Below the pieces are notes generated by a model that saw only the letters and a program-made list of their open reading frames with translations, searched no databases and was not told the DNA's origin. From Thermoanaerobaculia bacterium (GTDB taxonomy: Bacteria; Acidobacteriota; Thermoanaerobaculia; Multivoradales; JAHEKO01), in assembly GCA_947259925.1 (NCBI GenBank), contig CAMYOG010000047.1:21704-85703 (forward strand): DNA of 64,000 nucleotides, given 5' to 3'. Positions 1,496-47,026 of the stretch are shown here, piece after piece (the stretch's first letter is position 1; each line of letters begins with the position of its first letter). The position numbers and the translations under genes were made by a program.

Positions 1496-1503
1496 TTTTT
1501 GGG

Positions 1504-3291
1504 GTGAAGGTCCCGCGATCGGGGCGCGACCAAGTCATCCTATTTGAGCACCTGGGCCTTTTCAACCGAGCTAGCGGCCCCACAGGCGCGGCTGCTGCAC
1601 TACCATTGAAACCGGTCGTGCCCACACCGAAGGCTCTCCTGGCGGCTGCGCTGGCAGCACTCACCGGCCTGTCCGCCGCGGCGCAAGTCGAGCTGTCCGC
1701 CGAGCTCCTGGTGCGACTGACGGGGGCCGAACCGACCGAAGACGCGACCTCCCCCGACCTCGTCGCATTGGAGGGATGGCTGGGCGAGGCTCGTGTGGTC
1801 GGTCTGGGGGAGAGCCGTCACGGTGTTCACGACTTCCGTCGCCTGGCCCACCGCATTTTCGCCCACCTCGTCGAGACCCAGGGCTTCGACGTATTCGCTC
1901 TCGAGGTAAGCCAGGCCCACGCCGTTCGGCTGAACGACTTCGTTCATGGGCGGCGCGACGACCTGGACGCCCTCATGAGGCAGCGCTGGTGGGTGGCCAA
2001 GGTCTGGTACGACCAGGCGTTGCGGGACCTGCTCCTCTGGATGCGCCGATACAACGAGACCGCGGAGCGCCCGGTCCACTTCGCGGGGTTCGATTTCAAG
2101 CAACCCTCGTTCGCGATGGCAGCCGTCGTCGACGGACTGAGACGCCTCGACCCGAAGGCCGCCGCGGAAGCAGAGAGGGAGTACCAGACGATCTCGAACC
2201 TGGGCGGACTCGGCGTCTTCCCGAACGTCTACGGGCTCACCGCATCGATGAGGGTCGCCTTGCCTGCGCGGACAGGTACGGAAACCCTGCAGGCCGAATT
2301 GATGGTTCGCGGTCGCGGTGTCTCTCACGGCTGGACCGGCCTCTCGCTCGAAGGTGCCTTCTCCGGAGACCCGATCGAGTCTCGATACGTGTCCCCGAAC
2401 GACTTGAGCGAGACCTGGGCCACGCTTCAACTCGACGTTGCGGTCACCGATCGCGTCGACGAGGTCAGGCTGAAGGTCTTTCATCGCGGCAACGGCACCG
2501 TCTGGTTCGATGGTCTGCGGCTGGCTATCGACGGGCGCGAGATCGAGCTGCAAGAAGGCCTCGAGGCGATGGAGGTGCAGGCCCTGGCCATGCCGCTCGT
2601 GCAGGTGATGGATCACGAAGCGAGCCTCGATGATCAGGTCTCGTACGCCGGTGGCAGATCCCTGCGCGTGGACTGTGATCCGGCTCTCGACCGGGCGCTC
2701 CGAGCGGCTCGGAAAGTGGACGCTCTCGTCGACGAGACGCTCGCCGCCGAAACCGCACGCATTTCGAGCTCGCAAGCAGCGTGGTTGCGGCAGATGTCTC
2801 GGCTCGTTGGGCAGGCCACCGAGTGGCGAGCGCTGGTCGAGAGCAACCGGGACGTGTTCATGGCCGAGAACCTCGCCTGGCTACAGCAGCACGGGTTTCC
2901 AGAGAGCCGTGTTCTAGCGCTCGCCCACTCCAGTCATACGAATCGGAAGGCACGAGGCAAGGGAATGGGGCTCGTCCTCGCGGAGGAGTACGGTGATTCG
3001 TACGCGACCGTGACGATGCTGACTCTCTCGGGGCAGCTTCGCTACTTCGGAGATCCTCGAGCCACGGGCCGCGACGACGAGATGGTGCTGTCCTCCCTGA
3101 AGCGGGAAGACGCGGGTCCGCTCGAGCAGCGCCTCGCCGCGCTCGGCACGGGGGATTTGATGCTTTACCTCCGGGGCGCGGCAGAGTCTGGAACGGCTCG
3201 GAAGGCGATCGATCTCGAGAGCGTACCGGTCAAGCAGGTCGCGGATGTGGCCATTCTCCTCAGGGAAGTGGGGCCTCTGCGCCTCGATTGA
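1504..3291 (+). CDS. Erythromycin esterase (Ere) family protein with a C-terminal extension
   Basis: N-terminal region VVGLGESRHGVHDFRRLAHRIFAHLVETQGFDVFALEVSQAHAVRLNDFV matches the Ere/succinoglycan-biosynthesis family signature (GE.SHG..EF...R......GF...A.E). Signal-peptide-like N-terminus. At 595 aa it is longer than the typical ~410. Confidence 0.65.
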   Translation: MKVPRSGRDQVILFEHLGLFNRASGPTGAAAALPLKPVVPTPKALLAAALAALTGLSAAAQVELSAELLVRLTGAEPTEDATSPDLVALEGWLGEARVVGLGESRHGVHDFRRLAHRIFAHLVETQGFDVFALEVSQAHAVRLNDFVHGRRDDLDALMRQRWWVAKVWYDQALRDLLLWMRRYNETAERPVHFAGFDFKQPSFAMAAVVDGLRRLDPKAAAEAEREYQTISNLGGLGVFPNVYGLTASMRVALPARTGTETLQAELMVRGRGVSHGWTGLSLEGAFSGDPIESRYVSPNDLSETWATLQLDVAVTDRVDEVRLKVFHRGNGTVWFDGLRLAIDGREIELQEGLEAMEVQALAMPLVQVMDHEASLDDQVSYAGGRSLRVDCDPALDRALRAARKVDALVDETLAAETARISSSQAAWLRQMSRLVGQATEWRALVESNRDVFMAENLAWLQQHGFPESRVLALAHSSHTNRKARGKGMGLVLAEEYGDSYATVTMLTLSGQLRYFGDPRATGRDDEMVLSSLKREDAGPLEQRLAALGTGDLMLYLRGAAESGTARKAIDLESVPVKQVADVAILLREVGPLRLD

Positions 3292-44386: not shown

Positions 44387-44677
44387 CTTTTCATCGACCA
44401 CGACAAGGGCAACCTCGGCGTGAGCCGGGGACGCAAAGCCAGGGGCCCGCACACGGGCTAGCCGAGCCGCCGAACGGTCTTTCCCGGTCGGACTGGAATA
44501 CCTGCGGGCCGGGGGGAGGTGACCTGACCTCTCGTGACTGGGGTGTTGAGACCGTGAGAAACGGCGGCAACTACGAATACTCGAGGCGGACAGTGTCCGG
44601 GTGGTCGAGGAGCGCCACCAACCGGGGGGAAGAAGAGTGTTGATCTGAGTCGACACTTCGTCGACTTGTCTCTCGTC

Positions 44678-44708
44678 GAGCGGCTCTCCGGAGCCGCTCC
44701 TTTTTCTT
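44678..44708 (+). terminator. Rho-independent terminator (plus strand)
   Basis: GAGCGGCTC-tccg-GAGCCGCTC hairpin followed by CTTTTTCTT. There is no plus-strand CDS within 380 nt upstream. Confidence 0.6.
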
Positions 44709-44719
44709 GGCGCCGGGGC

Positions 44720-45871
44720 TCAGTCGGAGGCGAGGCCGCGGCGATAGAAGACCGAGCCGATGTCGTCGCCGAGGATCTCCAACTCGGTACTCTCCCGCCT
44801 CCGGTTCGGCCCGAACGAGTAGACGTAGTGGAAGCGACGCTCGCCGTCCCGGGTGCACTGCACCCAGTAGGGTGAGTTCCAGGGATCGAGAAAGAAGCGG
44901 GCCCGGTCTTCGGGCAGGCCCTGGGCGACCAACGCCGCGAACCGGCCTTCGTAGAGCTCGTCCTGGTCGTACTTCTCGACGTAGGAATAGACGCGCTTGT
45001 TCAGGTGGCGCTTGCTCAGGCAGATCTCGTTCAGACCGAGAAAGTCGAGTCGCAGAGCGCCGGCTTCGCTCTTGGCGGCCTCGATCAGCTCCGGGCGCCC
45101 GGCCCGCAGCCGTTCCGATCCGAAGGCGAGCAGGGCACCGCCGAGAACGACCACCAGCCACCAGGCCGCGACCTGCACTCGCTGGCGGCCGGCGCTCGAC
45201 CGGGCCGCGGTCCGCCATCGGGCGAGGGGCGGCAACGCCGCGAACAGGAATCCGAGCCCCATCATCAGCTCCACCCATTCGCCGGTGAACTCCCAGGCGT
45301 AGCTCGAATACATGAGGTAGGAGACCAGGAAGATCGGGGTCAGCCAGGGGGAGGGTGCCTTGATCGACCAGGAGTCGAACAGGCGCCGCACCGGCCGGAA
45401 GAGGTAGAGCAGCGGCAGGACGACGCCGTAGCCGAGCAGGACCACTTTCACCGCGAGCTTGCGATAGTCGCTGTCGACCACGTTGTGAACGTTGAGCTCC
45501 TGCTGGAAGTTGTGCTCGAGGAAATAGGCCGGCGGGCGATAGGCGAAGACCCGCTGCGCCCAGGAGATCTCCTCCATCGCCACGAAGAAGCAGAAGAGCG
45601 AGACGCCGGTGAAGAACCAGGGGATCGCGCCGGTCGCACGTCGCTCACGGGCGGCCGCGACCGCGAACAGCCCGGCCGCGACCAGAAAGGCGAGGAAGCT
45701 GGCCCACTCGAGCGCCTGGTCTTCCTGGACGCTCCGATAGTAGAGATCGGCGTCGGAGCGCAGCAGGTACCAGGCCCAGGCGAGCGTTGCCAGAGTCAGC
45801 AGATTGGCGAGGATCGCCGCGCCAGCCTCGAAGGTCTCGACGCTCGCACTCTGGTTCCGGGCCGAGGCCAT
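44720..45871 (-). CDS. Hypothetical membrane protein (multi-TM N-terminal half, soluble C-terminal half)
   Basis: 383-aa ORF with good codon usage and about 8 TM helices. Confidence 0.5.
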   Translation of the reverse strand: MASARNQSASVETFEAGAAILANLLTLATLAWAWYLLRSDADLYYRSVQEDQALEWASFLAFLVAAGLFAVAAARERRATGAIPWFFTGVSLFCFFVAMEEISWAQRVFAYRPPAYFLEHNFQQELNVHNVVDSDYRKLAVKVVLLGYGVVLPLLYLFRPVRRLFDSWSIKAPSPWLTPIFLVSYLMYSSYAWEFTGEWVELMMGLGFLFAALPPLARWRTAARSSAGRQRVQVAAWWLVVVLGGALLAFGSERLRAGRPELIEAAKSEAGALRLDFLGLNEICLSKRHLNKRVYSYVEKYDQDELYEGRFAALVAQGLPEDRARFFLDPWNSPYWVQCTRDGERRFHYVYSFGPNRRRESTELEILGDDIGSVFYRRGLASD

Positions 45872-46237
45872 CGAAGAATTCTACCGGCAGATCGCGAGCC
45901 GCTTGGTGAACTATGAGTTTGACAACCCGGGGGTTGATCCTGGAACATCTGGACAGCTTCGCATCCGCATGCTTCGTTCGCCGGAGTAGTGCGGCGGTTT
46001 CGAGGGTTTGGGCGGCCCGAGGAACCGGGCGGGGTGGGGCCCGCCAAATGGGGTACGCCCAGAAGGGAGGTGATCCAGTGGTATCTGATATACGCGGTTT
46101 AGTGGAGGTGGCGTCCTCTTAGGGGCTCTCCACAGCGTCCGTGGCGCTATCACTGGAGGCACCCCTCAAGGGGTACCCCACGCCACCGAGACAAACCCGA
46201 GGCCTCGGCTCCCAGGAGTCGAGGCCTTTCTAGTTCG

Positions 46238-47026
46238 ATGAGAATCGAGTTCGACCGCGAGGCGGGCGAGGTAACCCTCGGCTTCGACGACCGCGAGGAA
46301 GTGCGGAGCTTCTTCGAGCGCGCCGTCTCCGAGGGCGGCGTCCTGGTCGAGCTCTCCGACCAGCCGGCGTTCCGCCAGGAGGTGACGATCCAGGCGCGCT
46401 CGGACGACGGGGTCGACTTCGCCTGCCGGGCGGAGGTGAGCGGTGTGTCGAAGACCGCGGCGGGGAAGTACGCCACCGCTCTGCTCCTCGGCGGCTGGGG
46501 CGCCGCCGAGACCGAGCGGCTCAAGCTGGCGCTGGCGACCGCGAGCAGTCCGCGCCGGAGTACGACGGCCGCCGACGCCGACCTCGAGGAGGAGGCGGGC
46601 GAGACCCGAGGCACCTCGCCGATTCATCGGATCCGGGCGATGAACCCGAACCAGCGCACCATTCTGGCGCGCAAGGCGGATCGGGTCGAACGGCAGATCC
46701 TGTTGAAGGACAGCTCGCCGCAGGTGCTGCAAGCGCTACTGCTCAACCCCCGGGTCGAGGGGAAGGACGTCGTCCGCGTGGTCAAATCGACCCACACGAC
46801 GGGGGCGCTGCTCAAGCGGATCGTCGAGGACGGCCGCTGGGGGAAGAACCAGGAGGTCCTCGGCCTGGTGGCGAAGAACCCGAAGACGCCGTCGCCCGTG
46901 GCGCTGCGGCTGATCGAGAAGCTCCGGACGTCCGACCTGCGCTTCATGGCCAAGATCTCGTCCGGAGTTCGTGACAACATCCGGCGCGCCGCCCTACGCG
47001 AGTACATGCGGCGGACGGGCAGGTAG
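46238..47026 (+). CDS. Hypothetical protein with C-terminal HEAT-like helical repeats
   Basis: 262-aa ORF. Repeated ...LL.NP...VV..V.... helices. No SD. Preceded by a structured leader. Confidence 0.45.
   Translation: MRIEFDREAGEVTLGFDDREEVRSFFERAVSEGGVLVELSDQPAFRQEVTIQARSDDGVDFACRAEVSGVSKTAAGKYATALLLGGWGAAETERLKLALATASSPRRSTTAADADLEEEAGETRGTSPIHRIRAMNPNQRTILARKADRVERQILLKDSSPQVLQALLLNPRVEGKDVVRVVKSTHTTGALLKRIVEDGRWGKNQEVLGLVAKNPKTPSPVALRLIEKLRTSDLRFMAKISSGVRDNIRRAALREYMRRTGR

Follow-up and report, generated by a model that had tools for sequence, protein, structure and literature searches.

Small mRNAs of the rre type have been described in Bradyrhizobiaceae (rreB) and Rhodobacterales (rreR) (Hahn et al., RNA Biol 2016/17, PMC5711450). 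Their hallmark is a complementarity of at least 16 nucleotides (nt) to the 3' end of the 16S ribosomal RNA (rRNA), three times the length of a normal Shine-Dalgarno (SD) sequence, combined with a small open reading frame (ORF) of 14 codons in rreB and 18 codons in rreR, whose GTG start takes its G from the last base of the complementary stretch of 16 to 17 nt (PMC5711450). The rreB gene of Bradyrhizobium has its own RpoD-like promoter and its own terminator and yields a 165-nt mRNA, in which a block of 17 nt with complementarity to the 16S 3' end finishes on the G of a GTG codon that opens the 14-codon ORF; only the five 5' nucleotides of this block are predicted to be single-stranded (PMC5711450). 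rreB co-sediments with 30S subunits, to which it binds strongly, is weakly translated due to the long SD and the GTG, and is stabilized when the start codon is destroyed. Its overexpression did not slow growth, it adjoins a gene for a two-component hybrid sensor/regulator, and its function is unknown (PMC5711450). This is the one experimental paper on the subject in the literature searched, and it reports rre analogues only in four orders of Alphaproteobacteria (PMC5711450). Later papers extending rre genes beyond Alphaproteobacteria were not found in the literature searched, the coverage of which was incomplete. Here we analyze a spacer of 366 bp (45872-46237) located between two divergent genes, encoding proteins of 383 amino acids (aa; - strand) and 262 aa (+ strand), in a 64-kb stretch of Thermoanaerobaculia DNA (contig CAMYOG010000047.1), hereafter the window. 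We propose, with a probability of roughly 65%, that this region is a gene in its own right, encoding a small mRNA of the rre type, i.e., a ribosome-binding RNA.

A 16S-pairing block and a mini-ORF in a candidate RNA gene

An earlier note on the window had described this spacer as a structured leader containing motifs similar to the 2 ends of the 16S rRNA, a mini-ORF and several palindromes. All motifs listed there are found in the sequence, apart from small coordinate slips, and the conserved helices and covariation described below bear out that the region is structured. The anti-SD complement together with the mini-ORF is, as that note implied, the functional heart of the region. The complement, AAGGGAGGTGATCCAG, had been taken as exact. 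This is correct for 13 contiguous Watson-Crick bases (GGAGGTGATCCAG), but pairing of the whole 18-base block (AGAAGGGAGGUGAUCCAG, 46061-46078) with the canonical 16S 3' end requires that one G·U be counted. The 13-mer occurs once in the 64-kb window, against a naive expectation of approximately 0.002. Outside the window, the RNA was found in further loci, 16 in total, belonging to approximately seven lineages of Acidobacteriota-like genomes and metagenomes (for the distant members, the taxonomic assignment is uncertain), and the 13-mer is kept in every member whose RNA was read, save for one A-to-G change that still pairs as G·U. Among the 15 members read, complementarity of the block is 18/18 in twelve (11 with one G·U and L244 with two), 16 in L171 and L185, and 15 in L146, these last three being the most distant members and having 14 to 15 contiguous Watson-Crick pairs. 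Variants of the block are AGAAAGGAGGUGGUCCAG in L008, L248, and L249, and AGGAAGGAGGUGAUCCAG in L142. Because the block alone is shared with the alphaproteobacterial CC2171 RNAs (see below) and because the only substitution in the SD core, from A to G, keeps the pairing, we consider the 16S tail to be the partner of this block.

The arrangement of block and ORF resembles that of the rre genes. The last G of the block (46078) is the first base of the GUG start codon in 15 of 15 members; the GTG (46078-46080) thus shares its G with the last base of AAGGGAGGTGATCCAG and does not lie 6 nt after it, as had been stated, and the spacer between GGAGG and GTG is 7 nt. As in rreB, a 14-codon ORF follows the block directly, and its length is exactly 14 codons in all members read, including four that were found without any sequence pattern. 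In the window it codes for the peptide VVSDIRGLVEVASS (46078-46122), in agreement with the previous prediction. Residues 2 to 5 of this peptide vary freely, three non-synonymous two-base codon changes distinguish L171 from L185, and the conserved EVAS(S/P) at the C terminus falls on RNA helices. Because of these variable residues and of the overlap of the tail with helices, there is no evidence of a functional peptide: on the sequences compared, no selection on the peptide is demonstrable, and conservation concerns the initiation site and the length of the ORF instead. Partition-function folding of 11 members, using a fold without pseudoknots, predicts a mean unpaired probability of 0.6 to 0.9 for AGAAG, the four to five nt at the 5' edge of the block, and of 0 to 0.1 for UCCAGUG, which includes the start codon. 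The predicted situation is that of rreB, with the block free in its first four to five nt only and otherwise paired, as is the start codon. The likeness to rreB and rreR is judged on their published description and not on sequence outside the ribosome-binding site (RBS).

Comparison of the loci indicates that the spacer holds a separate RNA gene on the + strand (approximately 45953-46232) and not a passive leader. As would be expected of a gene for a discrete rre-type transcript, it is predicted to have its own promoter and, in all loci, a covarying terminator followed by a U-run. The heptamer TTGACAA (45919-45925 in the window) is present at the same upstream distance in 16 of 16 loci, and 17 to 18 nt after the -35 box there is a -10-like element, xAxxAT (variants CAACAT, CACGAT, CACACT, CAGCAT, and CAATAT). 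A consensus promoter scanner made no call here because the -10 matches only 3 of 6 positions. At the other end, the hairpin at 46200-46227 (-25.5 kcal/mol) has 92% of its alignment cells paired and both-sided changes in 8 of 13 pairs with 15 sequences (5 of 11 with 11 sequences), and at least 3 U follow the stem in every member read; a terminator scanner missed this hairpin because it requires 5 T in 8. The flanking genes differ among members and include the 262-aa gene, a HAD phosphatase gene directly, a hybrid histidine kinase gene, a GDSL lipase gene, and a convergent PspC-like gene. Since the -35 box is conserved, the terminator covaries (16 loci) and the flanking genes differ, we regard the RNA as the product of an independent gene. 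The frequent G·U pairs in its helices are compatible only with the + strand, which assigns the RNA to that strand. The predicted RNA has a minimum free energy of -125 kcal/mol (z = -3.6). The term leader does not suit a unit that has its own conserved putative promoter and strong predicted terminator and that is also found upstream of unrelated genes, once facing a convergent gene. A protein-coding reading of the region was rejected, as the overlapping long ORFs start in unconserved promoter sequence and many indels in the family are not multiples of three.

Part of the promoter had previously been likened to the 16S 5' end and its 27F primer site. This similarity is no more than chance and overlaps the promoter: the full 27F or 16S 5'-end sequence has no match within 3 mismatches anywhere in the 64-kb window, and what orthologues keep of the motif is TTGACAA, i.e., the -35 box, and, in the close clade only, GATxCT of the promoter spacer, while GAG and most of GTTGATCCTGG are unconserved. 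Conservation in orthologous loci thus holds for the anti-SD block, the long-range stem, and the terminal hairpin but not for the 16S-5'-like motif.

The first loci were obtained by searching with the downstream 262-aa protein, which led to metagenome-assembled genomes labelled Acidobacteria or Thermoanaerobaculia and to metagenomes; a protein-based genome scan returned one locus. In six syntenic loci, the RNA core (45990-46229) is 87% to 95% identical in nucleotides to the window, compared with 66% to 78% for the downstream coding sequence and 57% to 67% for the 5' part of the spacer. Because the core is more conserved than the adjacent coding sequence and its covariation lies above all 500 shuffles (see below), we conclude that selection acts on the RNA. 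Further relatives came from a scan of metagenomes with the pattern GGTGATCCAGTG-N50-80-CACTGGAGG, which gave 108 matches: approximately 95 copies of a plant tRNA-derived repeat, 5 of one unrelated conserved sequence (apparently coding), 3 singletons, and 5 true relatives (L142, L146, L161, L171, and L185). In addition, a covariance model of the 5' half of the RNA (R1, comprising the 5' domain and the RBS) found L008, L247, L248, and L249 at 77 to 100 bits among loci that had been fetched only through the protein, and these carry no pattern bias. No match to the RNA was obtained by BLAST against the PLSDB plasmids, and in viral contigs the 15-mer GGAGGTGATCCAGTG had at least 120 matches, which is about chance level for that collection. 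The repeat copies in the pattern scan (L132-L238, mostly from samples Ga03075xx and Ga03254xx) are approximately 96 nt long (GGTGATCCAGTGGTAAGAG...GGTTCGAGCC...CACTGGAGG) and resemble a tRNA-derived short interspersed nuclear element of a plant host by their T-loop-like GGTTCGA; they are unrelated to the RNA family.

Secondary structure and predicted mode of action

Approximately 60 base pairs of the RNA are supported by covariation. Alignments were anchored by hand, and helices were counted on 11 sequences with a tool and on 15 sequences in the anchored alignment. With 11 sequences, 94.9% of the cells of the 5' domain are paired, compared with 33% to 51% when partners are slid, and 7 pairs have changed on both sides; its covariation score (0.239 versus 0.170) was reached by none of 500 shuffles. 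Values for the 3' domain are similar, with 96.2% of cells paired (35% to 51% with slid partners), 7 pairs changed on both sides, and a covariation score (0.184 versus 0.130) also reached by none of 500 shuffles. The elements of both domains are listed in Table 1.

Table 1. Positions in the window of the predicted RNA gene, its structural elements, the motifs noticed earlier and the flanking genes; the last row gives CC2171 positions in other loci. Paired cells and both-sided changes refer to 15 sequences.
Feature	Positions	Strand	Description
Whole predicted RNA, approximately 275-280 nt	45953-46232	+	Putative start at approximately 45953-45956, to the U-tract
Predicted sigma-70-type promoter	45919-45948	+	-35 TTGACA 45919-45924, 18-nt spacer, -10-like GAACAT 45943-45948
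Hairpin P0	45965-45994	+	CCGCA.../...UGCGG; 89% paired, both-sided changes in 2/5 pairs
Hairpin P1	45995-46027	+	P1a CGGUUUC/GGAACCG, GA/GA internal loop, P1b GGGUU/GGCCC
Hairpin P2	46028-46045	+	GGCGGG/CCCGCC, G-rich loop; 96% paired, 0/6 both-sided, one-sided changes only
Pseudoknot	46009-46061	+	P1 loop UGGGCG 46009-46014 with CGCCCA 46056-46061; 97% paired, 1/6 both-sided
Hyper-extended SD block AGAAGGGAGGUGAUCCAG	46061-46078	+	18/18 bases pairable with canonical 16S 3' end, one G·U
Mini-ORF	46078-46122	+	GUG, 14 codons, UAG stop in loop of small hairpin
Helix P4	46074-46157	+	UCCAGUGGUA 46074-46083 with UAUCACUGGA 46148-46157
Long-range helix	46096-46197	+	GGUUU.GU...GGUGGCGU (46096-46114, within ORF) with ACGCCACC...AC.AAACC (46180-46197)
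Hairpin P6	46161-46174	+	ACCCCU-CA-AGGGGU; CCCC/GGGG stem with variable loops in every member; poor alignment register, weak counts
Intrinsic terminator	46200-46232	+	13-bp stem AGGCCUCGGCUCC/GGAGUCGAGGCCU (46200-46227), then UUUCU
16S-5'-like motif, first part GAGTTTGA	45915-45922		
16S-5'-like motif, second part GTTGATCCTGG	45933-45943		
Anti-SD complement AAGGGAGGTGATCCAG	46063-46078		
ACCCCTcaAGGGGT	46161-46174		
Palindrome GGGGTACCCC	46170-46179		
Palindrome CCGAGGCCTCGG	46197-46208		
383-aa membrane protein gene	44720-45871	-	5' neighbor of spacer
262-aa protein gene	46238-47026	+	3' neighbor of spacer
CC2171 loci	L240 1501-1681; L243 1501-1674; L241 and L242 around 1500-1700		

In the 5' domain, P1a is 92% paired with both-sided changes in 3 of 7 pairs, and P1b 89% with 2 of 5 (15 sequences). 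The loop of P1 bears a conserved G(G/A)GCGG motif (GGGCGG in the window), and the pseudoknot formed by this loop ends where the 16S-complementary block starts. Support for the pseudoknot from sequence comparison is modest, since it consists of a single compensatory event, a G-C to A-U switch present in L005 and L244. In the 3' domain, helix P4 is predicted to sequester the 3' part of the SD block together with the start codon; in the 11 members outside the search pattern, its core (CCAGUG/CACUGG) is 100% paired, with one U-A to U·G change and both-sided changes in 0 of 6 pairs. The long-range helix, which is pseudoknotted with P4, contains the GGTGGCGT/ACGCCACC stem that had already been noticed. 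The first arm of this stem is at 46107-46114, as reported, but the second arm is at 46180-46187 and not at 46181-46188, and the stem goes beyond chance because it is conserved or covarying in relatives. LR1 of the long-range helix is 99% paired with 0 of 8 both-sided changes, LR2a is 96% paired with 1 of 5 (a G-C to A-U switch), and LR2b has one U-A to C-G switch but is just 73% paired. P4, LR1, and the pseudoknot are conserved but show no more than one or two compensatory events, and they are to be taken as provisional elements of the sequence-based model. The palindromes GGGGTACCCC and CCGAGGCCTCGG are present but are not separate elements, being by-products of the adjacent helices, i.e., hairpin P6 and the terminator. 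As the main fold over the ORF, a local hairpin GUGGAGG/UCUCCAC was rejected (85% paired with no both-sided change, versus 96% to 99% with compensatory changes for the long-range helix), and a pairing GGGGUAC/GUACCCC (77% paired) was not adopted. The RNA also contains a direct repeat, GCGGTTTCGAGG (45994-46005) and GCGGTTTAGTGG (46094-46105), 100 nt apart, one copy starting P1 and the other lying inside the mini-ORF; both GGUUU copies can pair with AAACC at 46193-46197 (84% versus 96% paired), which hints at alternative folds.

On this basis, we propose the following sequence of events. A sigma-70-type promoter (-35 TTGACA at 45919) would drive a transcript of approximately 275 nt that is ended by the hairpin at 46200-46227. 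The RNA would fold into a 5' domain (P0, P1, and P2) and a 3' domain, with the P1-loop pseudoknot abutting the 16S-pairing block, P4 holding the start codon and the 3' half of the block, and the body of the ORF paired with the segment just before the terminator. AGAAG, which is predicted to be single-stranded and forms the 5' edge of the block, could then serve as a seed for the 3' tail of the 16S rRNA, and zippering to 13 to 18 bp would open P4 and capture the 30S subunit on the GUG. Binding of the 30S subunit would depend on AGAAGGGAGG. The over-long SD duplex and the GUG would hinder the escape to elongation, so that the RNA would be mostly ribosome-bound and weakly translated, and its fate (decay or refolding) would depend on ribosome engagement. 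By analogy, we infer that the RNA would behave like rreB in its 30S binding, its weak translation, and its start-codon-dependent decay. The three ideas offered in the earlier note were a leader-peptide attenuator, a ribosome-sequestering element, and a relic of an rRNA operon end, and the second of these comes closest, as rre small mRNAs bind 30S subunits through such a site in Bradyrhizobium (PMC5711450). A simple titration of ribosomes is argued against because overexpression of rreB did not slow growth. A more far-reaching and doubtful extension of this proposal is that the 5' pseudoknot domain senses a signal (ligand, protein, or folding kinetics), gates 30S capture, and couples ribosome availability to the adjacent two-component/PilZ-like operon, the rre-type RNAs being an old cross-phylum class of 30S-engaging riboregulators.

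The RNA also differs from the rre small mRNAs in several respects. Its host is Acidobacteriota-like and not alphaproteobacterial. In contrast to rreB, it is approximately 275 nt long instead of 165 nt, its RBS is placed approximately 108 nt from the predicted 5' end, behind the extra three-hairpin domain with its pseudoknot, it has a long-range helix between the body of the ORF and the segment preceding the terminator, and its 16S complementarity includes one G·U.

Independent gene, leader, or another partner

Several observations count against an rre-type gene. Pairing was scored with the canonical 16S end (CUGGAUCACCUCCUUUCU), the 16S gene of the organism itself lying outside the window. Uninterrupted Watson-Crick pairing covers 13 nt in the window and 12 to 15 nt in relatives, so that the published minimum of 16 nt is reached only by counting G·U pairs. 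P4 and LR1 show no both-sided variation. Sampling of the family was partly pattern-dependent, with part of the RBS and CACUGGAGG fixed: 5 of the 16 members came through the pattern that fixes GGTGATCCAGTG and CACTGGAGG, and in those the invariance of these bases is uninformative. Finally, the RNA lies directly upstream of, and co-directional with, 262-aa orthologues in six lineages, down to 43% to 47% protein identity, and in the window 6 nt lie between the U-tract and the ATG of this gene, which leaves no space for a separate promoter; no promoter was called there, and an SD is missing (its absence at 46238 had been noted before).

These last points suggest a different reading, in which the region acts in cis as the 5' leader of the operon that follows, made up of the PilZ-like 262-aa gene alone or together with the hybrid histidine kinase gene, and the terminator is a regulated checkpoint. 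The promoter would then serve the operon, and read-through would be set by 30S binding, translation of the mini-ORF, or signal sensing by the 5' domain. A cis role by read-through is possible because of the synteny in six lineages and the 6-nt gap lacking an SD and room for a promoter. In three of these six lineages a hybrid PAS-HisKA-receiver kinase is encoded between the RNA and the 262-aa gene, and other members also have a co-directional gene within 10 to 116 nt (a HAD phosphatase in L161 and a GDSL lipase in L171). We nevertheless consider a leader rather unlikely. The probability of the terminator is 0.95 to 1.00 in 11 of 11 sequences, whether the RNA is free or masked from the SD to 13 nt after the stop as if covered by a ribosome, and no conserved antiterminator was found in searches by hand, which gave only an unconserved 5-bp CCGAG/CUCGG pairing. 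The downstream gene is convergent in L185, and the distant 262-aa orthologues in L006, L010, and L011 are without the RNA within the fetched flanks.

A ribosome-mediated attenuator of the trpL type, which has a leader peptide like the attenuator suggested in the earlier note, shares with this RNA a short SD-led ORF, stable helices, an intrinsic terminator, and a position upstream of co-directional genes. A released attenuator RNA can itself act as a small RNA (sRNA), and rnTrpL/peTrpL of Sinorhizobium also has 14 codons. Unlike that type, however, the RNA described here has no antiterminator as an alternative to the terminator, 78 nt lie between the stop of its mini-ORF and the terminator stem, the ORF lacks both a run of regulatory codons and a repeated codon class, its first, N-terminal half is unconserved, and the genes downstream are variable. 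The relative that has been studied, rreB, is a discrete 165-nt transcript (PMC5711450). Altogether, we favor a discrete rre-like transcript. Its main rival is regulated read-through, and both could hold at once.

A structured non-coding RNA in which the SD-like block serves another partner, such as a protein or a CCUCC-bearing RNA, would make the 16S match and the mini-ORF incidental. Thermodynamic folding, in which the SD is paired approximately 70% of the time and the start codon nearly always, the two additional GGAGG motifs of the RNA (46104 and 46155), and the fact that peptide selection is not demonstrable are all compatible with this. We judge it improbable, because the block is complementary to the 16S tail far past GGAGG (GGAGGUGAUCCAG) and ends on a GUG at optimal spacing, and it is the only part shared with the alphaproteobacterial rre/CC2171 RNAs. 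Moreover, the ORF has 14 codons in all members read though 12 nt within it vary freely, and the third GGAGG is not invariant, being GGGGG in L247.

The remaining explanation, a degenerate remnant of an rRNA operon end or a chance collection of motifs, draws on the 8-mer and 10-mer matches to the 16S 5' end, the 13-mer complement of the 16S 3' end and the position of a 262-aa orthologue (49% identity) approximately 110 nt downstream of 23S-5S rRNA in L006 and L007. As far as sequence comparison goes, it can be dismissed as extremely improbable. An rRNA gene would not place the two 16S-like motifs on one strand in "primer" orientation, as they are here; nhmmer and blastn show no similarity to the 23S, 5S, or spacer DNA of L006 and L007; Rfam, searched at E values up to 10, has no rRNA-family match; conservation and covariation are strong enough to rule out chance; and the 5'-like motif is unconserved. 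In L006 (1-598) and L007 (1-337), an rRNA operon end thus precedes the gene that in the window follows a putative 16S-tail-binding RNA, and the upstream regions have no similarity.

Relation to CC2171 and other RNAs, and neighboring features

The Rfam search that had been proposed for this region gave nothing at the gathering score. At E values up to 10, it gave a sub-threshold match to CC2171 (RF01867) together with noise matches to miRNA and snoRNA models. CC2171 is a Caulobacter sRNA that is widespread in Alphaproteobacteria and whose function is unknown. It was the top sub-threshold match, and the only Rfam family matching, in the four members scanned (the window, L171, L142, and L244), with scores of 23.7 bits in the window and 21.1 to 23.9 bits in the other three; these lie below the gathering score of 75, and true CC2171 members score 83 to 84 bits, so the RNA does not qualify for this family by score. 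The likeness resides in the RBS: the CC2171 consensus starts with GAAAGGAGGUGAUCCAGUG, and copies from alphaproteobacterial plasmids carry GAAAGGAGGUGAUCCAGUG, the same block as the RNA described here. Genuine or near CC2171 members (L240-L243) have a GUG and a 24- to 26-codon ORF (VSHC...), and in L240 and L243 a closing helix is followed by GGAGG or GGAAGG and a GC hairpin. The differences are that R1 matches the CC2171 loci over the approximately 40-nt RBS only (15 to 21 bits), that the length and peptide of the ORF are unlike those found here, and that the GC hairpin after GGAGG is the terminator in CC2171, whereas in our RNA it is internal (P6) and approximately 50 nt more follow. By its hallmark RBS and this conserved ORF, CC2171 is probably the alphaproteobacterial rre gene, a link that is drawn here and is absent from the original description (PMC5711450). 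The Rfam sRNA would then probably be the same kind of gene as the one in the window. The CC2171 copy on a plasmid of Methylobacterium radiotolerans is located approximately 880 nt upstream of a 16S rRNA gene.

The presence of the same module in a distant phylum would mean either that the class is much older and wider than thought, or that the same way of grabbing the 16S tail evolved twice, and either origin would argue for a function of the module. In the RNA described here, the module is embedded in a larger, covariation-supported RNA with a conserved neighborhood, and the extra 5' domain and this neighborhood (the hybrid kinase and the PilZ-like protein) offer comparative handles that are absent from the alphaproteobacterial genes. 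The adjacency to a kinase gene that rreB shares with three members of the family may be a coincidence. In L008 (484-2484), L247 (2504-4972), and L248 (3043-5001), the RNA is directly followed by a gene for a hybrid PAS/GAF-HisKA-HATPase-receiver kinase. 6S RNA, which acts on RNA polymerase, and CsrB/RsmZ, which act on CsrA, only work in a similar manner, as stable RNAs with a super-optimal site for an abundant machine; here, the 30S subunit would be the partner, a single main site takes the place of many, and there is no sequence or structural relationship.

Pfam and NCBIfam searches of the two flanking proteins (383 and 262 aa) assigned no family. In the 262-aa protein, residues 21-75 give a hint of PilZ that falls short of the cut-off (E 0.049), and the C-terminal half resembles helical repeats; orthologues of its gene in distant relatives adjoin translation-related loci, namely an rrn operon end, RsgA, and SelB. 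A cyclic di-GMP-I riboswitch (RF01051) is present nearby at 44398-44474 on the + strand, between two convergent genes, with 45.3 bits against a gathering score of 35; at the gathering score, Rfam gave no match in the syntenic loci L002 and L003. No ordinary + strand gene comes after this riboswitch. The region that it opens (44398-44710) contains an SD-like GGGAGGTGA (44514), a possible 29-codon ORF starting from a GTG at 44555, and, at 44678-44699, a hairpin that resembles a terminator and has a T-run.

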